IMG/VR virus record: IMGVR_UViG_2657245570_000016
DNA: 42,242 bases
Direction: 5' to 3' (one strand)
DNA from: a virus
Lineage: Duplodnaviria; Heunggongvirae; Uroviricota; Caudoviricetes
Part shown: piece by piece, positions 1 to 42,242 of the stretch
Layout of the letters: each line of letters opens with the position of its first letter
How positions within the stretch are numbered: the first letter of the stretch is position 1
Program-made: the position numbers and the translations under genes
Notes under the pieces: model-generated
Databases searched by the model: none
Told to the model about the DNA's origin: nothing
Seen by the model: the letters and a program-made list of their open reading frames with translations, nothing else

Positions 1-270
<270 letters not shown>

Positions 271-476
271 TTACCGTTAAATCATTTTAAAAATCAGTAA
301 GTTGTATCGAGTTTGTATGCTTTACTGTCATTAACTTACTGTATGTTGATCCAGTGTATTTAACCTTGATAAACTCAGTCCAGTAACACAAAGCCGCAAC
401 ACATTGCATTTTGTCCCGTAGAAAAGACTTGTATGTGTGTGCTTGTTTTCTGCGCCTACGCAGATAAGGATTGAGA

Positions 477-1874
477 ATGCCGCGCACTGTAACACATAAT
501 CCGGATAGCCCCAATAATGACGATGTTTTAGCCGCATCTGAAAAATGGGACGCCTGTAAACCCCCCTATACCAGCGCACACATGAAAATCTGTGTTGCTG
601 CCGCCAAAATCATCCTCGCTGCTTCCGGCGTGGCTCGCCGTTCCAAATACGAAAAAGAGAACTATCTCCGTATCGATTTCAGCAAAGCCGGTAAGGTTAC
701 ATTTTACGCCGAGTTTCCAAAAAAGATGGGCCTCAAAGGTAAAAAGCTCGGCGAGTGGCCGGAGCTCGCTATCCAGCTGGCGCGCGAAAAAGCGCTAGGT
801 ATGGCTGACGGTGGCCTGCGGGCAGAGTCCGTACATGCAGCGCTGGAAATGTACCGGGATGACCTCAAAGCCAAAGTCGCCCGGCAGAAGCTGAGCCCGG
901 ACAGTTTCACAACCTACGGGGTGCGTATCGACCGGATTAAAGCAACGTTCGGCGAGCGCGAGGTGTTCAGCGACGTAACATACAATCGGCTGGTGGAAGT
1001 GCTGGACGAGTGGATCGCTACTCGCTCGAACAATAACGCCCTGGAGTTGTTTGCCGAGCTCCGTCGGTTCTGGAAGTTCTGCGCACCTACTCTTTGCAAC
1101 GGCCGCAATGTTGCCGCCAGTCTGCCAGATGATTATGTTTCCTCCCGCGTACAGAAACCTACCCCCACACGGCTTTTTACCGATATTGAATCAATCGCCC
1201 GACTCTGGCTCAATGTTGCTGCCTGCACCTCTGTACACCAGAAGAATGCTGTTCGCTTCATGATCATCACTGGTGTTCGTCCGATTAATGTCCATAACCT
1301 GCGCTGGGACTACGTTCACGAGGAGGCTGGTGAAATTGTTTATCCGGAAGGGGTTATCGGCATGCGAGGGGCTATGAAAACACAAAAGGCTTTCCGCCTG
1401 CCGATAACCCCTGAGATCCGGCGGATTATCGACGAGCAGAAAGCCTGGCGTGATTCAGTTCCTGAGTGCAACAGGGATTATGTATTTTTGCAGCCACGTG
1501 ATCCAATGCAGCCATTTTCAAAACGATCACTGGATAAGCTGGTGAAAACATACAGCCCGGACGGGGCTGTAAAAGGAATAAAACATGATGGGACTGTTAA
1601 AGGGAAAGACGGTGCATTTAATACGATGTGCCGTAAATTCCTTAAGAGCAATGTTATTGCCTTGATGAAGGAAAGAGGCTATTCCCGCTCAGACCGAAGG
1701 GAAATCAGCCTCCTTTGCCTTCACCACTCCAGCAAGTCAGATGACCCGATGGCAGAACATTACGACTTTTCTGATGAGATTTTACAGGAAGAGATTGCGT
1801 TGAAGCGCGAAGCTTTCGAGGCTCACGAGCGGAGCATACTTGCGCAGGTGGCATTGCTACGGCGGCGAGGTTAA
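477..1874 (+). CDS. int: Tyrosine-type site-specific integrase
   Basis: The ORF track starts at a TTG (471); the first ATG is at 477 with AGGA 7 nt upstream. C-terminal region has the spaced R...H..R...Y residues expected of a tyrosine recombinase (e.g. LLCLHHSS, AEHYDF). It sits at the prophage end next to an excisionase-like gene. Confidence 0.8.
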   Translation: MPRTVTHNPDSPNNDDVLAASEKWDACKPPYTSAHMKICVAAAKIILAASGVARRSKYEKENYLRIDFSKAGKVTFYAEFPKKMGLKGKKLGEWPELAIQLAREKALGMADGGLRAESVHAALEMYRDDLKAKVARQKLSPDSFTTYGVRIDRIKATFGEREVFSDVTYNRLVEVLDEWIATRSNNNALELFAELRRFWKFCAPTLCNGRNVAASLPDDYVSSRVQKPTPTRLFTDIESIARLWLNVAACTSVHQKNAVRFMIITGVRPINVHNLRWDYVHEEAGEIVYPEGVIGMRGAMKTQKAFRLPITPEIRRIIDEQKAWRDSVPECNRDYVFLQPRDPMQPFSKRSLDKLVKTYSPDGAVKGIKHDGTVKGKDGAFNTMCRKFLKSNVIALMKERGYSRSDRREISLLCLHHSSKSDDPMAEHYDFSDEILQEEIALKREAFEAHERSILAQVALLRRRG

Positions 1875-2071
1875 TACTGGCTGCGACATTTTTGAATAAA
1901 AGCGTCGATATTTCGGCGCTCATAACGAACTACTTTTGCACTGAAACGAATTGGTGCCAGGATAGCCCGATGACGATGCTTAATATTCCACTCACATAGC
2001 GTTTTCTGTGTAATACCTAACTTTTGGCATACTTCATCCGGGGTGAGTAAATCGTCGGGTTTCTCGCTCAT
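1871..2071 (-). CDS. AlpA-family helix-turn-helix regulator / excisionase
   Basis: 66-aa protein with an HTH-like segment (LLTPDEVCQKLGITQKTLCEW); position directly beside int; 4-nt overlap with the upstream helicase gene. Confidence 0.65.
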   Translation of the reverse strand: MSEKPDDLLTPDEVCQKLGITQKTLCEWNIKHRHRAILAPIRFSAKVVRYERRNIDAFIQKCRSQY

Positions 2072-3462
2072 GCTATACCTCTCTTTTTCATGGCATCGAG
2101 CAGGATGTCCTGCACTGTTCGTTTTGAGTTGCGCCGCTCCATCACCATTTCATCCATAGTGTCGGCAGCAATAATGTGGTGAATAAATACCGGACGATTG
2201 TGTCCGGCCTGTATCTGCCTGGTGGGGCCGATACGTTCAATAATTTGCTGATATTGCTCCAGGTCCCACCAGTGTGAGAAAAATACCAGTATATTTCCGC
2301 CGTCCTGCATGTTCAGGCCGTGGCCCGCGCTGGCTGGGTGTGCAAAGAGAACAGGAATCTTTCCGGAATTCCAGTCGCGCAGTGTCTGTGGATCCTGGTC
2401 GAGGTGACGACCGCGAGGGAATGCTTTAAGCAAGCGTTCAAGATCGTGTTTCCAGTGATAAGCAACCAGCACAGGTGCGCCAGCTGCTTCGGTCAGTATG
2501 CTGTCCAGCGCCTGTAGTTTGGTGTCATGCAGTTCTGACCAACTTCCGGTGTCATCTGTGTATACTGCGCCGCTGGCGATTTGCAGACACTTCAGTGTCT
2601 TTGCCGCGGCGTTCGGTGCTTCGATGCCTTCGCCATTCAGCTCGAGGAACATTTCCTTTTCCATTTCACGATACTGCTGACGGGCCTTCGGTGGCATATC
2701 CACGCGGATTACGTTATGGATGGGGTCTTTGATATCGAACCAGTCGGCCGCATCCAGCGAGAGGGTTACATCGGCTAACGCTCGCTGTATTTCACCCTGT
2801 GAGTGAGCAAAAGGCTCCAGTTTGGTCCAGCTCTGCCCCGGAAACTGTATCGAGTTGAACCAGCGTGAGGTAAACGCGCCGTAAGTGCGCCCGAGACGTT
2901 GCCCCTGGTCCACAAACCACGATTGTCCCCACAAATCTACCAGGCCGTTCGGTGCTGGCGTACCGGTGAGATTTATCCAGCGCCGGACATACTTATGCGC
3001 CACTTTGCCCAGCGCCGCCGCGCGCTTACCACCACCGCGCAGCCGGAAGGATTTTAGCCGGGTGCTTTCATCTGGAATGACAGTACCGAACGGCCATCGT
3101 TCTCCCAATTCTTCAATCAGCCAGACAAGGTTATCGTAGTTGATGGTGAACACGCTTGCGTTGCTGTTCGTCAGCGCCATAGAGCGCGCTTTGGCATTAC
3201 CAATAATTGGCTGCACCTCGATATTGCGCAAATGTCCCCACTTCAGTGCTTCATCCGGCCATGTGCTGGCAGCCACGCGCAGCGGCGCGAGGACCAGTGC
3301 GGGGCATGTTTCTGCCCCTGCCATAAAGAGATCTTCCAGCGCAGTGAGCGTTGCCACGGTTTTACCCATTCCCATCCCCGCCCAGATGTTGCCGCGCAGG
3401 GTTTCGGTTTCGTGGTTGATAATGAGAACTTGGTAGGGGCGAGGTATATATTTTGGGGGCAT
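2068..3462 (-). CDS. SNF2-family ATP-dependent helicase
   Basis: Motifs in the translation: Q-motif (PYQ), Walker A GMGMGKT, DExx-like VIPDESTRLK, motif III LTGTPAPN. Confidence 0.85.
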   Translation of the reverse strand: MPPKYIPRPYQVLIINHETETLRGNIWAGMGMGKTVATLTALEDLFMAGAETCPALVLAPLRVAASTWPDEALKWGHLRNIEVQPIIGNAKARSMALTNSNASVFTINYDNLVWLIEELGERWPFGTVIPDESTRLKSFRLRGGGKRAAALGKVAHKYVRRWINLTGTPAPNGLVDLWGQSWFVDQGQRLGRTYGAFTSRWFNSIQFPGQSWTKLEPFAHSQGEIQRALADVTLSLDAADWFDIKDPIHNVIRVDMPPKARQQYREMEKEMFLELNGEGIEAPNAAAKTLKCLQIASGAVYTDDTGSWSELHDTKLQALDSILTEAAGAPVLVAYHWKHDLERLLKAFPRGRHLDQDPQTLRDWNSGKIPVLFAHPASAGHGLNMQDGGNILVFFSHWWDLEQYQQIIERIGPTRQIQAGHNRPVFIHHIIAADTMDEMVMERRNSKRTVQDILLDAMKKRGIA

Positions 3463-3524
3463 ATAATATGGCTCCTAAACAACAAAAGGCCAATTTAGAC
3501 CTTTTGTTGTTTTAAAAATGTTAT

Positions 3525-4442
3525 TTATAATAGTGCTGTTACTATTGCATCTTTAAAAATATTTTCTTCTTCATTTATTAAAGGTGATGACAGATGAATA
3601 ATTACTTCTTTTCCTGTCAATACTATTTGCTCGACTTGAAATCCTGCGTTGTGTAGTCTTTGGCGTAACTTTTCTAGTGCTGATTTTGATATACTAAATC
3701 CTTCACTCCTTATAGTATAACTGGCAACTCCATTTTTAATAATATCTACAGAGTTGTCAATTTCCTGCTGCGAGTAATTTTTCGGTGAGTCGAAAAATCT
3801 GGATTTTGTCGTTGCTGTTGCCCTAAGAGATATCAATAATGATTTGATATCTTTAATCTCAGATGCCAGATACTCAGTTTCTGATACTTCTTTCTGGTCT
3901 AGTTGTGCAACTTTGAAAGTGCCAAAATGTTTGAGGAATGTTGTGTATTCAGGATCAGTTACTGACTTTAAATATGTTTCTTTTATCTTGCTCGCAAGTC
4001 TTTCTTTGAATAAATTGATTGATTGGTATCTTAAATCCGAAGGGTACTCTAAATGTTCAATTGATGAAATGTCAAAGCTATAAGGAGTGCGCTCGTCCTT
4101 AATAATTACGGTCGGTTTGTCAAATGCGAGACGCATTCCTAATTCAAACATTACATTAGCGTTTCGAGCACTTATATCGCAAACAACTATGGGGTTTTCA
4201 TAAAGATTTTGAACAATTCGTTTTTGTATTACTGCAACATCATCATCTGAACTTACCAAATTTGCCTTGAATCCGGCATCATTTGATGCTTCACAAATAA
4301 TGTCATGAACATTTCTCCAATGTCCAGTGGGATAACCTTCTATGTCCGCAATTGGCATAATAATGCCGCATATATGAGGTGGCATATTTTTGTTGTCTTT
4401 TACATCATCTTGGTTTATTTCTTTCGTTTGTTGCTTAGCCAT
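3525..4442 (-). CDS. Hypothetical protein: N-terminal TIR-like / nucleoside 2-deoxyribosyltransferase-like domain plus C-terminal domain of unknown function (about 170 aa)
   Basis: N-terminal ICGIIMPIA...IVVCDISARNANVMFELGMRLAFDKPTVIIKD...SFDISSIEHLEY resembles the conserved core (R.xNV.FE.G ... pSD..G..Y) of TIR-like/deoxyribosyltransferase-like folds. Visibly AT-rich relative to neighbours; good AGGAG Shine-Dalgarno before the ATG at 4440-4442. Confidence 0.5.
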   Translation of the reverse strand: MAKQQTKEINQDDVKDNKNMPPHICGIIMPIADIEGYPTGHWRNVHDIICEASNDAGFKANLVSSDDDVAVIQKRIVQNLYENPIVVCDISARNANVMFELGMRLAFDKPTVIIKDERTPYSFDISSIEHLEYPSDLRYQSINLFKERLASKIKETYLKSVTDPEYTTFLKHFGTFKVAQLDQKEVSETEYLASEIKDIKSLLISLRATATTKSRFFDSPKNYSQQEIDNSVDIIKNGVASYTIRSEGFSISKSALEKLRQRLHNAGFQVEQIVLTGKEVIIHLSSPLINEEENIFKDAIVTALL

Positions 4443-4742: not shown

Positions 4743-4936
4743 TAGCTTTCGCCTTCCTGCTTTTTGCGTTTCTTCATGCAGATAGCGCAGTTCTCAGGAT
4801 GGTCATGCCATTCGTCAATCCTGATACCTGTGAACATCCATTTTCCGCATAGTGATATGGCTTCCCCCGAATTAAAGAAATGTGCTTTTTTCGACAGGGC
4901 GGGGAACCCCCAACCTTTATTATCGATATTAGACAT
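4742..4936 (-). CDS. Small putative zinc-binding phage protein
   Basis: 64 aa with C-x12-H-x-H-x5-C-x2-C spacing (LCGKW...WHDHPENCAIC) and a basic tail; its stop overlaps the VRR-NUC start (TAATG on the minus strand). Confidence 0.45.
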   Translation of the reverse strand: MSNIDNKGWGFPALSKKAHFFNSGEAISLCGKWMFTGIRIDEWHDHPENCAICMKKRKKQEGES

Positions 4937-5120
4937 CGTCCACCTCCTTACGCTTTTCGCGCATGTTCTGCATCAGACAAAAATCAAACCGACGTTCGCT
5001 TTGGCCCAGACCTGCATCGCCCGGTCGTACCCGCTGGACTGTTCAAGGCGCAAAGCCTCCCGTGCAGTCCGGTAATAAAGCGGACTGTCCCGGTATTTAA
5101 ATGACATAGGGTTTTTATTC

Positions 5121-5147
5121 CCAAATAAAAAACCCCGCAATGCAGGG
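5121..5147 (-). terminator. Rho-independent terminator-like hairpin read on the minus strand
   Basis: Minus-strand RNA would form CCCUGC-AUU-GCGGGG (6-bp stem with one G-U pair) followed by UUUUUUAUUU. It lies about 25 nt downstream of the stop of the 5172..5933 gene. Confidence 0.5.
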
Positions 5148-5171
5148 TTGTAATCAACAATAAGGGGGTAA

Positions 5172-5933
5172 TTACGAGGAAGCGTTAGCTATTTGAGCTT
5201 GTGTAAATTCGAAACCAGAATTTTGTAACCGTTGCACTAGACGAGGAACTGTTTCACGTACATGGTCGTTGAAATTCAGATACAAAATCCCGTTAGCATC
5301 AGAAGGCTGTTCTAGGTGCTGTTTCTGAAGGATTGCTACATTGCTGCGCCCTAAGGACGAAAGAAGCATACCCATCTCGAGTACAACGTTCTGTCTTGCG
5401 CGGGGTTGGATTTCTGCTTCACCGGCGCGCTTTGAGTATCCCATATCATCAGGTGTCAAAAGAACAATCCCGAAACGAGTAGCAGTTTGTCCTTGCCCAA
5501 TTTCACGTTCAAGCTCTTCAATAATGGTGAGTCCAGTCCCTCCCGTATTCTGCAAAATGAAATGGTCTGGTAATCCAAGTTTATGAAGGATTAGCTCAAG
5601 TTGTTCCTTTGCAGTATGGTCATGGCCGTGAACAATGAATATCTTTTTGGGAAGCTCAGATGGCTGTTCTACGGCTAGTGGTGTTGCCGTGGGGGGCGTT
5701 CCTAAATGGGACATTATTGCAGTTTCAACATTGGGACGTTCTTGAGGGTTCCCTTGAAACTGAATGGTCCGGGTGGTGTAAAGGTTAACAATTACGCCAT
5801 TCGTTAAACGATAGCAGTCATAAGTCTCACGCTGTTCGTGGGAAAAATTGGTGAACCCACACTCCCTCAAAAAGTCAGGAAAAGATTCTCTCGGGTATGG
5901 ATAGTTGATCGGCATTTCAGTTAGTTCCTGCAT
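5172..5933 (-). CDS. Hypothetical protein: N-terminal domain of unknown function (about 90 aa) plus C-terminal TIR-like domain (Cap12/PycTIR-type predicted nucleotide-binding fold)
   Basis: C-terminal KKIFIVHGHDH...FGIVLLTPDD...RARQNVVLEMGMLLSSLGRSNVAILQK...PSDANGILYL matches my recollection of the TIR-like consensus (FIvHG ... TPDD ... RaRqNVvfElG ... pSD..G..y). GC content looks lower than the flanking pol gene. AAAGGA Shine-Dalgarno before the ATG. Confidence 0.55.
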   Translation of the reverse strand: MQELTEMPINYPYPRESFPDFLRECGFTNFSHEQRETYDCYRLTNGVIVNLYTTRTIQFQGNPQERPNVETAIMSHLGTPPTATPLAVEQPSELPKKIFIVHGHDHTAKEQLELILHKLGLPDHFILQNTGGTGLTIIEELEREIGQGQTATRFGIVLLTPDDMGYSKRAGEAEIQPRARQNVVLEMGMLLSSLGRSNVAILQKQHLEQPSDANGILYLNFNDHVRETVPRLVQRLQNSGFEFTQAQIANASS

Positions 5934-5997
5934 AAGTATTGTTCCTTTAATTTACTCGAATTCAGCATGTCGCCATAGCTCGATAAGGTGAGTTATA

Positions 5998-8061
5998 TCA
6001 ATCTTTTTTGTAGTGGTACGCCTCAAAGCCGCCAGCGTTCAGCGGAATATCGGGTGCCCATTCGGGGTTAGTGGAGAGAAGCGCGGAAAGCGCTTTATCG
6101 TTGAAATCTTCTGTGTCTGGTGCTTCGGTGATCACCTCGTCGTGTACCGTTAGCACAATGCTGTAACCGGCACCCTCGATCAGCGGCATGTTTCTGGCTA
6201 GAACGTCGCGGGCGGCCGCCTGGGTGACGTTCTCCACCAGCTTTCCGCCGTAGGTTTTGAGTCGTTGCCATTTACGCGAATAAGAGTTAACACCCATGTA
6301 GGTGATATTCCCTTGTTCGATAACCGGAGACGGGTAGCATACAGCGCGTCCGGATGGTAGCTGTATGCGCAGCCACGCGCCATCACGTCGGATTTTAAGA
6401 TAGCCGCAATACAATGTTTTTTGCGGTGTGGCGATTGCTGTGCGGACAGTGCGCTCCAGCTCGTACCAGAAATCGCAGGTCGCCGGGTGCGCCCTGCGCC
6501 ACAGGCGCTTGAGCGAGTCACATGCGATGAATACACGCTCGGACAGGCCAAAGGTCGACTTACGCTTAACCGATTCGTCGTACCAGCTTTTTGCCTCGCG
6601 GATAACATCGCGGGGAATGTTTGGCAGTGCGGCGTTCGCCAGCTCGTCGAGATCGAGACCGTAAACCAGAGCAAAAGTGATGAAAGCCGATACACCACCT
6701 CCATAACCCAGACCGAGTTCCATGACTTTACCGATCTGACGCATGTGTTTATCAACATCATCTGGTGCAATATCGAAAGCTTTTGCATACGCCAGTTTAT
6801 ATAAGTCCGGACCCGTTCCAGCGTCATACTCTCTGAATGCATTCAGTTTCCATTCTTCTCCCGCCAGCCATGCCAGCATACGGCCTTCAATGTTTGACAA
6901 GTCACTTACCACTAGTTTTTTGCCTGTTGGCGCGATAATGCAGCCACGTAACGCTGAACTGGTTAGTTCCATGATATTGTCAAACAGCAGGTCTGCACAT
7001 CCGGCTTTCAGTGCTTCGATGCCTTCGTCTATTTGTTCCTGTTTTAGTGAAGGGCGGGGAAGGTTCTGGGGCTGGAATAGCCGTCCGGCCCAACGACCGG
7101 TACGTGACGCCCCGCAGAACTGTAGCGTACCGCGTAAGCGCCCGTCGTGGCTTACGCCTTTCATCAGTGCCTTGTATTTACTGGTGCTGGTAGTACTGGC
7201 TTGCAGGCGGATAGCCAGCAGTTCTTTCACGGCAGATGATAAATCGGGGTCGGCCATACGACGTTCCAGGGTACTGCGTTGCATGTCTGGTAGCTCCACA
7301 CCGTAGGATTCAACGATGTGCTTAATCAACGCGTCCCGTTGTGTGGCTGCCTGCACTTCGCCATCAGTCATTTCCTGTGTACGCTTTGCCAGGCGCTTTT
7401 GCTCCTGGTCTACCGCTTCGATCGCAGCGCGCGCGAGTTGCATGTCCATGCAGACGCCCCGGTCGTTGATCTGCTGATCACGATGCCAGAGCGCCAGCTC
7501 TGTCCCCTGATAATTCCACTTCGGCAGACGTTTATAGACTTCACGCATTGCTTCGATATCCAGTCCGGCGTAAGCAACAAAGCGCCGCCATTCTTCCGGA
7601 TGGGTTTTACTGGTGGCCCGACGCAGTTTGCTGTTTTTCGGACGTGGCTTACAGAACAGCTGGATCAGCGCTTTACCTTCTTTGTCCTTCGCTTTGTCTT
7701 GCGGGACGCCTAGTACTTCGCAGAGTTCCCCCAGAGACCCCGGGAGACCGTGCGCCAGCGCCTGCACCATCGTGTCGCGCCAACGTTCGACTGGCGGTGC
7801 CAGTCGCGGCATTGCATAACGCAGAACGGTGCGGTCGAAGTGAGAGTTATGGAAATAAAGCAGGGTTTCAGGGTCTGCGATTGCTTCGTATAAGCCGTGT
7901 GGAATACCACCACCGGCAGTGATATCCCACACGTTTACTGGCCCGTCGTTGATAGCCCATGCGAAAAGCATCACTTCAACGCCTTCGGCATACGCATGGG
8001 TACCGTTCGTAATAGGGATTTCGCAATAGGTTTCCAGGTCGCCCCATAGTATATTGGACAT
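5998..8061 (-). CDS. Family A (Pol I-like) DNA polymerase with N-terminal 3'-5' exonuclease domain
   Basis: 687 aa; N-terminal exonuclease motif (GDLETY) then a long polymerase region; a typical partner of DUF2800/DUF2815/VRR-NUC/SNF2 replication modules. Confidence 0.8.
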
Positions 8062-37606: not shown

Positions 37607-38283
37607 GCAAATACACCGAACTAATCACGAACTACCACGCCACCAAACCTAAATTTCTTGCGCATGTTGATCTGATGACCCGGCCACTTATTGATGTTGC
37701 GGCTGCCACCAGAGGGCTGATTAGTGCATTTGATATTGACTCTGCGGTTGGTGTGCAACTTGACATCCTTGGATTGTGGATCGGACGTAGCCGTGTTGTC
37801 AGCCAGCCTATCTCAGGTGTCTATTTCAGCTGGGATACCGACGGGCTTGGATATGATCAGGGGGTATGGCAGGGACCATACGATCCTGATTCAGGATACA
37901 TGTATCTCAGCGATGAAACTTATCGTGTCATTCTTAAAGCGAAGATTGCGATTAATAACTGGGACGGACGGAATGATTCGCTTCCGGCAATTCTTGACGC
38001 GGCAACAGCAGGATCCGGGCTGCGAATGCAGATAGTCGATAACCAGGACATGACGATATCGGTCTGGGTCTTTCCTGATACTGATATTTCAGATGTATCG
38101 CGTGAGTTAATTGCGGCAATTAAACAGGGGTATCTCACAGTAAAAGCCGCCGGGGTATGGGCGGGTGGCATTGAAACACCTTCGGTGGAAACCCCATCGG
38201 AAGGCTCAAAATTTTTTGGTTTTGATATGGATAACGAATTCATCAGTGGTTTTGATGTAGGAGCATGGGGAGTATTACTCTGA
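37603..38283 (+). CDS. Baseplate/tail protein (I-like)
   Basis: 226 aa between J-like and tail fibre genes. Confidence 0.45.
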
Positions 38284-38978
38284 TGGCGAAAAATGACTTT
38301 AAAGCGTTTGCAACGGATCGAAATGCCAATGTTATATCGCAGGAGGAATGGGAAGCGTTGCCCGCGCTTTTATCTGGATTTACAGCAGGGAAAGCCTCCA
38401 GTGCGCAAGTCAATAAGGTTATTCGGCAGGCCAGCTTTATTGCTGCAGCTCTGGCCCAGTTTGTAAGTGATAAAACGCAACGGGATGTGCTTGATAATGG
38501 TGATCTGCCCGGTTTTGTTGAATTGCTGGGATCGGGGTTTGCTGTTGAATACCTGAGCCGCAAGAATCCGTTTGGCGATATCAAATCGGACGGCACGGTG
38601 AAAACAGCTCTCGAAAACCTTGGTTTGGGAGAAGCGGCAAAACGGAATGTGGGCACAGGAGATAATCAGATACCGGATATGGGAGCATTCGCTTCTGGTT
38701 CGGGATGGTTCAGGCTACCAGGTGGATATATTGTTCAGTTTGGCACTTTTTCAGGAAACACGACCCGCTTTATCAGTGGACACTTCCCTATACCATTCCC
38801 TAATCAGCCGATGATTTCAGTCAGTGTTATGTCTGATGCCGTTCAGTCAGACCCGTCGAATCCTGCCCCGCAGGTTTTGTCTGTAAATTTTGAACATATC
38901 AGTAATTCAGCGTGGCGTGTGGCAACCAGTGATATCTCACAGCAATACAGATTCAGTTATATTTCGATAGGACGGTAG
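38265..38978 (+). CDS. Tail fibre protein (constant part plus currently expressed variable C-terminus)
   Basis: Contains the left inversion site at 38611-38634 inside the coding sequence; followed by a tail fibre assembly gene. Alternative ATG at 38283. Confidence 0.6.
38611..38634. repeat. Invertase recombination site, left (hix/gix-like)
   Basis: TCGAAAACCTTGGTTTGGGAGAAG; its left half resembles the hix half-site as I recall it; matches the reverse complement of 40429-40452 at 21 of 24 positions. Confidence 0.6.
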
Positions 38979-38980
38979 AA

Positions 38981-39421
38981 ATGCAGAAATATATTTTCAG
39001 TGCCGATAAAAATGCGTTTTTCCCTGTGGAGCTTAAAATCGCTTATCAGGAATCCGGCGAATGGCCCGATGATGGAATCGAAATTGACGACACTGTTGCT
39101 GCCGAATTTATGAAGGAAGCACCAGAAGGAAAATACAGAGGTGTCATCGACGGAATGCCTGCATGGATTGATATTCCACCGCCAACTCATGAGGAACAAA
39201 TTGCCGCAGCCGAACTGAAAAAGCAGCAATTGATTAATCAGGTCAACGAATACATAAACAGTAAGCAATGGCCTGGTAAAGCGGCGATTGGTCGCCTGAA
39301 AGGTGAGGAACTGGTGCAATATAATTTGTGGCTGGATTATCTGGACGCACTGGAACTGGTCGATACTTCCGGTGCGCCAGATATTGAATGGCCTACGCCT
39401 CCGGCAGTTCAGGCCAGATGA
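38981..39421 (+). CDS. Tail fibre assembly protein (Tfa/U-like)
   Basis: 146 aa; conserved C-terminal ELVDTSGAPDIEWPTPP, mirrored by the opposite-strand paralogue (DTSTAPDVIWPELP). Confidence 0.7.
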   Translation: MQKYIFSADKNAFFPVELKIAYQESGEWPDDGIEIDDTVAAEFMKEAPEGKYRGVIDGMPAWIDIPPPTHEEQIAAAELKKQQLINQVNEYINSKQWPGKAAIGRLKGEELVQYNLWLDYLDALELVDTSGAPDIEWPTPPAVQAR

Positions 39422-39989
39422 CATCCGGCGCGGTGCTGGTATCTGTTGCCGTCACCGCGTCAATGTAATCCAGCACAGCGTTAAGCCGGGTTGTTTCTGC
39501 CTGCGTCAGTTTCCGCCCGGCTTGTAATTTCAGCTGAATCAGACTAATGGAAGCCATTGCTGCATCAATCAGTGACTGGCGCTGTGCTTCTGACGCGTCT
39601 ACTGCGGCGCTATGCTGTGCCTCGGTATCCGTCACCCATTTCTCACCATCCCATTTATCGTATGGCATTAACGGTGAAAGCGTGACATAACCATCTTTGA
39701 TGGCACCGATATAATCCACTGTAACAGCTGCGCCATTTTCGATTGAGTAAACAGTCTCATTGCGATGGTCCTCTTCATGGCTCCATCCCTTACCTGTAAA
39801 TACAGCCACTTTTCCCGGAATGTTTTCGCCAGGGTTAATTCCAGTGGAACAGGCGGGCATACTTACGCCAGTATTAATATATTCATCAGACCAGCCCGTA
39901 TACTCAGATGTTTCAGCATCATAATAAAAACAACGCATATCGCCCGGCACTGTAGCCAGTCCATTTTCATCAAAAATTGGGGTCATCAT
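39393..39989 (-). CDS. Alternative tail fibre assembly protein (Tfa') inside the invertible segment
   Basis: 198 aa on the opposite strand with a Tfa-like C-terminus; convergent and overlapping with tfa. Confidence 0.65.
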   Translation of the reverse strand: MMTPIFDENGLATVPGDMRCFYYDAETSEYTGWSDEYINTGVSMPACSTGINPGENIPGKVAVFTGKGWSHEEDHRNETVYSIENGAAVTVDYIGAIKDGYVTLSPLMPYDKWDGEKWVTDTEAQHSAAVDASEAQRQSLIDAAMASISLIQLKLQAGRKLTQAETTRLNAVLDYIDAVTATDTSTAPDVIWPELPEA

Positions 39990-40441
39990 TTAGCCCTCAC
40001 CAGAAAGTTAAATGCAATATTTCGCGGTCTGACGGCAACAAAATTCACACCATCACCCACAGAGTTACTGGTGAAATTAAATCGTGAAAATCCTGGCTGA
40101 TTTCCGGCGATACCATCATGAAAATTAATTGTGTGGCCCGCACCATCGCCTATATTCCCGGCAAACTGAGAAAAGTTTGTAGCTGCCTGCCAGCTTAATA
40201 ATTCGCGACCACCGTCTGCACCTCGCCCGTCATCCCAGATACGAATGAAATCACCGCGGGCTTCAGGTAATACCAGCGAAGGAAACACTTTCGCCAGCAC
40301 AGGGTAATCAGAGGCAGAAAATTTCGCCCCGTTAAACTTCAAAAACACCATACCGGACCAGCTGTCGATGACAGAATTTGGCATTGCAGCGGACGGCCAG
40401 AAGAACGGAACGCCAATAGCTGGGGCACCTTCTCCCAAACC
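39986..40441 (-). CDS. Alternative tail fibre C-terminal segment (Sv'-like; promoterless, expressed only after inversion)
   Basis: Open frame on the minus strand starting at the right inversion site; encodes a Gly-rich fibre-like C-terminus; no plausible own start. The ORF-track Met at 40483 lies outside the invertible segment. Confidence 0.55.
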   Translation of the reverse strand, partial: GLGEGAPAIGVPFFWPSAAMPNSVIDSWSGMVFLKFNGAKFSASDYPVLAKVFPSLVLPEARGDFIRIWDDGRGADGGRELLSWQAATNFSQFAGNIGDGAGHTINFHDGIAGNQPGFSRFNFTSNSVGDGVNFVAVRPRNIAFNFLVRAK

Positions 40442-40452
40442 AACGTTTATGA
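40429..40452. repeat. Invertase recombination site, right (hix/gix-like)
   Basis: CTTCTCCCAAACCAACGTTTATGA is the inverted copy of 38611-38634; lies 57 bp upstream of the invertase start. Confidence 0.6.
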
Positions 40453-40509
40453 AAATGCAGAAATAACGAGCAAATGGCATCATTCCTGCTTTTGTCAGAG
40501 GGATCCACT

Positions 40510-40824
40510 ATGCTTATTGGCTATGTACGTGTGTCAACAAATGACCAGAACACAGATCTACAACGTAATGCGCTGAACTGTGCAGGATGCGAGCTGTTTT
40601 TTGAAGACAAGATAAGCGGTACAAAGTCCGAAAGGCCGGGACTGAAAAAACTGCTCAGGACATTATCGGCAGGTGACACTCTGGTTGTCTGGAAGCTGGA
40701 TCGGCTGGGGCGCAGTGTGCGGCATCTTGTCGTGCTGGTGGAGGAGTTGTGCGAACAAGGTGTTAATTTTAGTAGTTATGTTATTACAGGTGGGGGATTT
40801 CTCCCCCTTATGCAGATTTTCTAG
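40510..40824 (+). pseudogene. Serine DNA invertase (Hin/Gin/Pin/Cin family), truncated after about 96 codons
   Basis: MLIGYVRVSTNDQNTDLQRNAL...DTLVVWKLDRLGRSV closely matches the Pin/Hin N-terminal catalytic domain; after EQGVNF the sequence diverges (SSYVITGGGFLPLMQIF*) into AT-rich DNA. Typical family members are about 185-190 aa. Confidence 0.75.
40787..40802. other. GC hairpin at the junction between the truncated invertase and AT-rich DNA
   Basis: GGGGGA-TTTC-TCCCCC perfect 6-bp stem, about 27 nt downstream of the stop of the minus-strand 281-aa gene. Confidence 0.4.
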
Positions 40825-40828
40825 TTAA

Positions 40829-41674
40829 CTATTGGCGAAGTGGCCATATTTTTCTGTTTTTTAAAAAACTATCTTCAACTATATAACTGCAACAATGTTC
40901 ACTAAGGCCATAAAAACTAATTATTCCATATTTATGAGAAGCTATATCAGACAGTTCTGCTAATACTGTGGCAAGCCAACGAGCGATGCTAAGAGAATAG
41001 AATCTTCCCCACTTTTGAACAATGGTATTTTGTCCAGTACGGATGGAGGCTGATATAAGGTCTTGCATAATGTTGGTACTTTCATTCATATACATGACCG
41101 TTGTATACGGTGAAAGAGTGGCATTGATAAACCTAGCATTTTCTTCAACACGTCTTTGTTCAACTGTATAATAATAATGTTTTTCAAGGATACTCTCGGC
41201 TACTTCTCCCCACCATTTATTAATAGGTTCATTATTGGTTAAATTGGGGCTGCTTAATGAGGAGAAATTTGCGTAACGTCCCCGTCGGGCATCAGCAAAG
41301 GAATCTAAACATTCAAGTATTTTGTAGGTAATTTTATGTGTAGGACGTGAATATCTCAGAGATAGTTGCATTTTTTTAGAAATACTATCAACCTCGTTGG
41401 TTAATTCAATGAGCTTATGTCCAAATTTTCTTACAATATTCTCATCAGGCATTTTCCCTTTGTGTTCAATGGCATAGTGTGCAACAAGTATTAGTTTAGC
41501 AAGTCTCTCAAAACCTACAGAAAGCCCAAAAAATGCTGTGTAATATTCACCTATTTTGTCTGCATAATTGGCTTTACCTATGGCTGTTGCCCCAGAACCA
41601 ATGAGCTGTGTAACTAAAGATGCTTCTCGGCCCAGAGCGTGCCATGCTGGAATATCCCAGGGATTTTTATTCAC
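40829..41674 (-). CDS. Hypothetical protein (281 aa), AT-rich cargo gene
   Basis: Long ORF in visibly AT-rich DNA; no motif I can assign confidently. Confidence 0.5.
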   Translation of the reverse strand: MNKNPWDIPAWHALGREASLVTQLIGSGATAIGKANYADKIGEYYTAFFGLSVGFERLAKLILVAHYAIEHKGKMPDENIVRKFGHKLIELTNEVDSISKKMQLSLRYSRPTHKITYKILECLDSFADARRGRYANFSSLSSPNLTNNEPINKWWGEVAESILEKHYYYTVEQRRVEENARFINATLSPYTTVMYMNESTNIMQDLISASIRTGQNTIVQKWGRFYSLSIARWLATVLAELSDIASHKYGIISFYGLSEHCCSYIVEDSFLKNRKIWPLRQ

Positions 41675-41801
41675 TTTATTATTTTCCTTTGCTCATAAAT
41701 TTAAATTGTTTGAGTATCTCATAAAATATAAGGAGATGGTTAAGGTTGTTGATCGCATATAATAGCTATTGAAAGTCAAGAACTCGGTTTTATGTTCTAC
41801 C

Positions 41802-41842
41802 ACTAATTAATATATTGTGAGTTTGACAATATATTAATTAGT
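41802..41842. repeat. Perfect palindrome (16-bp arms, 9-bp spacer) upstream of the 281-aa gene
   Basis: ACTAATTAATATATTG-TGAGTTTGA-CAATATATTAATTAGT; the arms are exact reverse complements. Confidence 0.6.
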
Positions 41843-41975
41843 ATGATCAAACCAGCCATCAACTGATTCCTTGTATCTTTCAGAGTCTCCAGAACAAAAG
41901 CCTTAACGAATTCCTTATTTGTGAGTGCCTTACCAAAAGCCCATTGTTGCAGGGAACGAGTATAAAACTCGCCAG

Positions 41976-42242
41976 CTACTGGAGCAGGCTACCTGATTGT
42001 CGATCGATTCCTGCGTCCATATAGTCGATGGTCTTCTGGAGCTCTTCGATTAGGGCAATAGCTTTTGCTCGAGAAATGCATATTAGTTGATCCGGAAATT
42101 CTTGTAAGGGCCAGTTTGGTATACAGGCCATGTTATCAGTGAAGGATGCAGACAAGTAAACTTCATTGGTAACTAGGGAATAGCTTACCTCAAAATTGGT
42201 GAGTTCCGGCAAACTGCTAACGTTTGATTCTTTTCTGCGCAT
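41976..42242 (-). CDS. Hypothetical protein (apparent Met is at the window edge; may extend beyond the window)
   Basis: 88-aa ORF whose ATG coincides with the last 3 nt of the window; AT-rich. Confidence 0.35.
   Translation of the reverse strand: MRRKESNVSSLPELTNFEVSYSLVTNEVYLSASFTDNMACIPNWPLQEFPDQLICISRAKAIALIEELQKTIDYMDAGIDRQSGSLLQ

Follow-up and report, generated by a model that had tools for sequence, protein, structure and literature searches.

Does an invertible tail-fibre switch stop working when its own invertase gene has been cut short? This question is raised by a prophage of E. coli in which a gene for a serine invertase, located beside two opposed tail-fibre genes, breaks off within its coding sequence. 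The invertases of the Din family are Hin, Gin, Cin and Pin, and the broken gene, which we call pin', belongs to the Pin/Gin type. The initial annotation of this DNA had proposed that the switch is probably locked unless it is complemented in trans. Here, we examine the window, i.e., the whole stretch of 42,242 nucleotides that was analysed, together with related genomes. We consider it likely that pin' was inactivated by a swap of the neighbouring cargo gene, that the cis-acting sites were left intact, and that the segment is flipped occasionally by a Din-family invertase supplied in trans.

The prophage and its truncated invertase

The window is a segment of the E. coli chromosome. Its own genome lies outside the set of complete genomes, and the three closest complete genomes are 1296KP, at 1 SNP, and 22AR0747 and MSB1_6C, at 2 SNPs each. 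The prophage of about 42.2 kb sits in the 5' end of yfhL, a gene that in K-12 is separated from yfhH by 55 bp. The att core, TTCACACATATCACAATT, is duplicated, with one copy at about 213-251 of the window and the other, attR, about 200 nt past the window end (45769-45790 of locus L003). Since both att repeats are intact around the prophage, everything up to yfhH, including the AT-rich DNA that follows pin', lies inside the element, and a deletion at the prophage end is ruled out as the cause of the truncation. The annotation of the prophage is complete but for one frameshifted small regulator, and includes integrase, replication, lysis, terminase, head, contractile tail and baseplate functions.

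Some further features of the element were observed. Insertion at the 5' end of yfhL gives YfhL a replacement N-terminus, and the site has been used by prophages with the same right-end module and at least two kinds of tail backbone. The early/replication region contains a gene for a TIR-domain protein (WP_001551506.1; 5172-5933, minus strand), flanked by the DNA polymerase gene and the frameshifted regulator, which is of the ANR family; this may be a defence or counter-defence gene. We found no description of the prophage family that carries pin' and the adjoining cassette. The vB_EcoM-606R2 records, of which we found no mention in the literature, were considered as an independent phage with this tail module and an intact invertase and rejected, since they proved to contain this same prophage flanked by host DNA. 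ON470579.1 was deposited as a 'complete genome' and contains the host genes tadA, yfhB and yfhH, while the end of ON470582.1 and the start of ON470584.1 each adjoin an invertible segment. These three and ON470588.1 and ON470593.1 appear to be predicted prophage regions, or contigs that broke at the switch, rather than packaged genomes.

The right end of the prophage has the following features.

40510-40776, plus strand: pin', the 5' 89 codons of a Pin/Gin-type serine invertase gene, a pseudogene remnant (Pfam, PHROG and alignments)
40777-40824, plus strand: read-through tail of the pin' ORF, 15 unrelated codons and a stop (homology break)
40777-41960, no strand: AT-rich replacement cassette of 1184 bp (homology to a sibling prophage stops at 40776 and resumes at 41961)
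40792-40807, no strand: GC hairpin of 6 bp, GGGGGA-TTTC-TCCCCC, 21 nt beyond the stop codon of the 281-aa gene on the minus strand
40829-41674, minus strand: cargo gene for a 281-aa protein of HEPN-like fold, candidate for a defence function (homologue search and predicted fold)
41976-42242, minus strand: 88-aa ORF (phrog_17793) between the cassette and attR, common to the window and the sibling prophage

The ORF at 40510-40824 on the plus strand encodes 104 amino acids followed by a stop. It matches the Pfam Resolvase N-terminal domain (E=1e-28) over profile positions 2-98 of 145 only, and the PHROG 'DNA invertase' family (E=3e-47). Residues 1-89 are about 93% identical to full-length PinE (184 aa). 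When the DNA is aligned in register with full-length pinE, the two are almost the same as far as 40776; homology ends at 40776|40777 and the sequence is unrelated from 40777. A truncated Pin-type invertase, as initially annotated, is thus confirmed by the partial Pfam match and the homology break, though the retained part measures 89 residues and not 96. The description of homology through EQGVNF followed by unrelated sequence is accurate, with EQGVNF ending at residue 87 and the homology at residue 89. Residues 90-104, YVITGGGFLPLMQIF, are read-through beyond the homology. This tail is not conserved as coding sequence, and three other lineages lack its stop codon. In every genome examined, PGAP has a pseudogene entry for the stretch 40510-40776, named 'recombinase family protein, missing C-terminus'.

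The retained part includes R7 and S9 (in YVRVSTNDQ) and D64, R65 and R68 (in KLDRLGRS), so pin' still has the catalytic core of a Din-family invertase. What was lost can be seen from full-length PinE, which aligns to Gin (PDB code: 3UJ3) with E=1e-93. By this alignment, the linker, the helix-turn-helix DNA-binding domain and helix E all fall within the missing residues 90-184. Helix E, the oligomerisation helix (about residues 100-135), is absent from pin' and is not encoded elsewhere in the window. The C-terminal helix-turn-helix domain (about residues 139-184), which carries the Fis-contact residues, is absent as well. A tblastn search with Pin residues 90-184 in all frames of the window found nothing, the best hit having E=0.065 over 23 aa. 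The loss of the rest of the catalytic domain and of the entire DNA-binding domain, which had been noted from the reading frame, is therefore borne out by the Gin alignment and by this search.

The same junction recurs in many genomes. We found pin' joined to the same AT-rich DNA in 43 complete E. coli genomes at 94.5-100% identity, and the breakpoint is at the identical base in all ten copies aligned across it, the window included. Because there is one breakpoint and one cassette in all copies, the truncation, on the evidence of these alignments, is one shared, ancestral event. Two copies have been altered further. In CAU16175 (3368-6108 of locus L005), pin' is separated from the 281-aa gene by an IS421 element, which has inserted directly behind the hairpin; the tail region of this prophage has been rearranged too, with an IS3 element in the DUF2612 gene. 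The copy in 14EC029 (700-3770 of locus L017) has the same stub and cassette without recognisable 26-bp crossover sites and with a different, glycine-rich tail fibre, and its switch may have been lost altogether.

The origin of the junction is indicated by a sibling prophage in E. coli 2013C-4465 (NZ_CP015241.1). It is like the prophage of the window in its integration site at yfhL, its tail module, its crossover sites and the 88-aa ORF next to attR. Unlike the window, it has a full 182-aa pinE, followed in order by a 215-aa gene on the minus strand, the 88-aa ORF and attR, and is without the 1184-bp cassette. As homology stops at 40776 and resumes at 41961, the 1184 bp in the window have replaced 1045 bp in the sibling, i.e., the 3' half of pin and the 215-aa cargo gene. 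An insertion or deletion event had been suggested at this position. Incoming DNA is indeed involved, in the form of a cassette replacement and not of a simple insertion or a deletion at the prophage end. AT-rich DNA does start at the break, where the GC content falls from 0.487 in pin' to 0.376 over 40777-42242 (0.492 for the whole window). The GC hairpin noted at the break is also real, though it lies at 40792-40807 and not at 40787-40802, and is part of the incoming cassette, not of pin. It folds better than shuffled sequences on the minus strand only (z=-2.3, against -0.7 on the plus strand); this z-score is modest, and the hairpin was not called a canonical intrinsic terminator in a terminator scan.

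The corresponding slot of e14-type prophages, between pin and attR, is occupied by mcrA. The different genes found there across members make this a variable cargo slot. In this slot, a single-gene AT-rich cassette, encoding the 281-aa HEPN-like protein, took the place of an earlier cargo gene. The left junction of the swap cut into pin at codon 89/90, and the parts for helix E and the DNA-binding domain were lost.

The new cargo protein has no Pfam, PADLOC or PHROG match, and the 215-aa protein of the sibling has no Pfam or PADLOC match. The 281-aa protein has 486 homologues across many proteobacteria, with 56-74% identity among the best 120 listed, and its gene moves as a single-gene module. 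A homologue in Enterobacter lies on an island with an integrase gene, beside a type I R-M system, and one in Serratia occupies a P2-like gpA-portal hotspot beside a PvuII R-M system. The predicted fold of the protein contains the HEPN four-helix arrangement. Compared with the HEPN motif R-x(4-6)-H, it has only RKFGH (R-x3-H), in which H86 is invariant and R82 is less than 90% conserved. Based on this predicted fold and these neighbourhoods, the 281-aa gene is a reasonable candidate for an anti-phage gene, perhaps a new single-gene system.

The tail-fibre switch and its inversions

The elements of the switch lie upstream of pin' and within its 5' part.

38283-38978, plus strand: tail-fibre gene expressed in the window orientation, WP_060615827.1 (PGAP; Pfam Gp53-like_C, E=3e-8)
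38608-38633, minus strand: left 26-bp crossover site, TTCTCCCAAACC-AA-GGTTTTCGAGAG as read on the minus strand (inverted repeat, pattern scan and inversion end-points)
38981-39421, plus strand: tail-fibre assembly (chaperone) gene for part A (Pfam Caudo_TAP, E=9e-34)
39393-39989, minus strand: tail-fibre assembly gene for the alternative part B (Pfam Caudo_TAP, E=2e-25)
39986-40447, minus strand: alternative C-terminal part B of the tail fibre, without a promoter (PGAP 'phage tail protein, missing N-terminus')
40430-40455, plus strand: right 26-bp crossover site, TTCTCCCAAACC-AA-CGTTTATGAAAA (inverted repeat, pattern scan and inversion end-points)
40531-40594, no strand: candidate Fis-dependent recombinational enhancer (motif scan and position)

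This is the layout of the G, C and P segments, with the constant N-terminus of the fibre outside and two opposed C-termini, each with its chaperone, inside. The expressed gene consists of the constant N-terminal part up to the left site and then the gp53-like C-terminal part A. Inversion fuses part B to the constant part, and the resulting complete gene of 795 nt is present in the flipped genome WP3-W18-ESBL-08. The fibre thus measures 231 aa or 264 aa, depending on the orientation. The two 26-bp sites are inverted with respect to each other, share the central AA and are conserved in 8 further loci. Within the retained stub, there are two Fis-like G-N13-C 15-mers, GTGTCAACAAATGAC (centre 40538) and GTGCAGGATGCGAGC (centre 40587), with 49 bp between their centres. 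The pair is 95.5 bp from the centre of the right site, and is a weak match at the level of the motif. In Hin, the enhancer is 65 bp long and about 100 bp from a hix site, with the centres of its Fis sites 47 bp apart (PMC3798978). The motif and its position make the stretch at about 40531-40594, inside the stub, a candidate Fis enhancer. The cis-acting parts, i.e., both 26-bp sites and the 5' segment of pin where Din-family enhancers lie, have stayed intact after the truncation.

Three pairs of genomes carrying pin' show that such segments have been inverted. Between 22AR0747 and WP3-W18-ESBL-08, 1794 bp between the repeats are inverted with 0 mismatches. O111:H11 8D and O26 97-3250, which have a different cassette, differ by an inversion of 1583 bp, and C11 and C10, which have an e14/YmfQ-type tail backbone with the same stub and cassette, by one of 1566 bp, again with 0 mismatches in both. 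The end-points of all three inversions are canonical Din-family sites with the AA core. As the truncation is common to all copies, the three flips came after it. On these comparisons, the switch is not permanently locked, with exact inversion in three independent pairs.

It could be argued that the switch is permanently locked nonetheless, with orientations that were fixed before the truncation in phages that were then acquired independently. That large groups are uniform in orientation (20/20 and 3/3 of the ST38-like clade) fits this idea. However, the single breakpoint and cassette make the truncation ancestral, and the flipped pairs have only 0-1 SNP in their flanks and the same chromosomal site. 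Moreover, three cassettes and two tail backbones each occur in both orientations, and the same truncation would have been needed at least six times. We therefore regard a permanently locked switch as unlikely. It is very unlikely that RecA-dependent homologous recombination between the inverted repeats made the inversions. Such repeats do exist, but at 20-26 bp they are very short for RecA, and the end-points of all three pairs fall at Din-family sites with the AA core, as expected for site-specific inversion.

Flipping looks rare, since the ST38-like clade of 23 near-identical genomes is split into 20 in one orientation and 3 in that of the window. A second copy of IS200 is present next to icd in 22AR0747 and 1296KP and is absent from WP3-W18-ESBL-08. 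Given this shared element, the three genomes in the window orientation may form one subclade, for which a single flip would suffice. For comparison, the P segment of e14 has a PinE of its own, and its inversion is reported in 33% of 562 genomes (PMC12529663).

The source of invertase activity

If pin' is dead, the enzyme has to come from elsewhere in the lysogen, and a search for other invertase genes, which the initial annotation had advised for the host genome, was productive in the relatives. In two of the three closest genomes, 22AR0747 and MSB1_6C, an intact 184-aa PinE is encoded on an e14-family prophage at icd. One of this prophage's own sites, TTCTCCCAAACCAAGGTTTTCGAGAG, is identical to the left site of the window, and the other, TTCTCCCAAACCAACATTTATGAAAA, has one mismatch to the right site. 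We also observed that the invertible segment at 38556-40000 of the window is 96% identical over 1445 bp to that of the icd e14-family prophage of these genomes (4770-6214 of locus L009). The icd site is empty in 1296KP, which has the window's orientation, and in the flipped WP3-W18-ESBL-08. There is no invertase in the lambdoid prophage at potB in the ST38-like genomes inspected. By megablast, there is a second pin-like match in every ST38-like genome listed except EPSSH018 and CAU16175. Megablast found no second PinE-like sequence in nine O26/O111-type genomes, which include both orientations. A more distant invertase, or a prophage that has since been lost, would explain the orientations in the O26/O111 genomes. 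PinQ/PinR-type enzymes are 38% identical (PMC12529663); at this level of identity such enzymes would escape megablast and could still work in trans.

There is a precedent for such borrowing. In K-12, PinQ, the product of a cryptic prophage, acts in trans to invert the P segment of e14, and this segment is locked in pinE and pinE pinQ mutants (PMC12529663). Action in trans is thus the expected mechanism at our locus, and we infer the identity of the flipping enzyme from the prophages that its relatives carry. We propose that the segment keeps one orientation in most descendants, with an occasional inversion by a compatible Din-family invertase from a co-resident prophage, e.g., the e14-family PinE at icd. 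The original expectation of a switch locked unless complemented in trans was essentially right, considering the 20 to 3 split in orientation, the at least three exact inversions and the PinE of the relatives.

The possibility that the 89-residue fragment is naturally short and functional, as a regulator, a dominant-negative partner or even a catalyst, must also be weighed. The fragment is in frame and without stops in all ten lineages examined, the differences are mostly synonymous (27:6, 35:13 and 16:6, synonymous to nonsynonymous), and both orientations occur in the O26/O111 genomes where megablast found no other PinE-like gene. However, the fragment is without helix E, which makes up the dimer/tetramer interface and has the residues that control tetramer formation (PMC4513852). 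It is also without the DNA-binding domain, which in Din-family invertases contacts both DNA and Fis (PMC3798978). Neither the read-through tail nor the stop codon is conserved, and the orientations in the O26/O111 genomes could be due to the PinQ/PinR-type enzymes that megablast misses. The synonymous bias has another explanation, because the stub is mosaic. Across lineages, divergence reaches 22% in nucleotides 1-240, where most of the changes are synonymous, but the last 27 nt and the cassette hardly vary. Between the window and e14-type pinE, identity is 97.5-98.3% over nucleotides 1-240 and only 74% over the last 27 nt. The simplest reading of this pattern is that the stub has recombined repeatedly with intact pin genes of other prophages, which probably carried tail-fibre cassettes along. 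The stub would have no stops because it is repeatedly overwritten from intact pin alleles, and this overwriting explains the synonymous bias too. dN/dS was therefore discarded as a test of pin' function, being uninformative for a mosaic. A functional fragment is highly improbable, and the best explanation of the sequence is that pin' would be a dead remnant, unable to bind or recombine DNA.

The persistence of this remnant could have a reason of its own. Among the 43 complete genomes, with at least two tail backbones and at least five cassettes, selection might keep the stub for the right site, the enhancer and about 270 bp of pin homology, which would maintain an orphan switch that runs on borrowed invertases and allow tail-fibre cassettes to be exchanged with co-resident prophages through recombination at the stub. 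We offer this only as a tentative suggestion.

Finally, a full-length frame hidden by a sequencing or assembly error, for which nothing speaks except the abrupt end of homology, can practically be dismissed, as the junction recurs in 43 complete genomes that were sequenced independently, no downstream frame encodes Pin residues 90-184, and what follows pin' is another gene, on the opposite strand, for which there are 486 homologues.

Relation to known systems

The locus closely resembles the PinE/P segment system of e14 in K-12. The similarity of residues 1-89 to PinE and the same 26-bp sites are accompanied by the same arrangement, i.e., a constant fibre part, two opposed pairs of C-terminus and tfa, the invertase and a cargo gene before attR (mcrA in e14). 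Unlike in e14, the invertase ends at codon 89, integration is in yfhL and not in icd, and the backbone is one with a DNA polymerase and a DUF2612/baseplate-J tail. In the operation of one prophage's segment by the invertase of another, the locus would be like PinQ of the Qin prophage acting on the e14 P segment (PMC12529663). It differs from the K-12 P segment, which has its own intact PinE, in that the cis-encoded enzyme appears to be dead and the switch, to judge from sequence, would depend wholly on a foreign enzyme. The pin-attR slot is like the cargo/defence hotspot between gpA and portal in P2-like phages, in that it holds different genes in different members. Unlike in such hotspots, the exchange of cargo here has damaged a neighbouring phage gene.

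An invertase pseudogene whose inversion can be complemented in trans is a known and ordinary kind of gene decay, and our finding leaves the current understanding of Din-family inversion systems unchanged. It does illustrate that the swap of a cargo gene at a prophage end can disable an adjacent phage function, and that a tail-fibre switch can stay invertible after its own enzyme is gone, through dependence on invertases from other prophages. An annotator who meets a 'partial recombinase' beside opposed tail-fibre genes should not conclude that the switch is frozen. For phage biology and for the prediction of host range in phage therapy, the receptor specificity of such a prophage depends on the rest of the lysogen.
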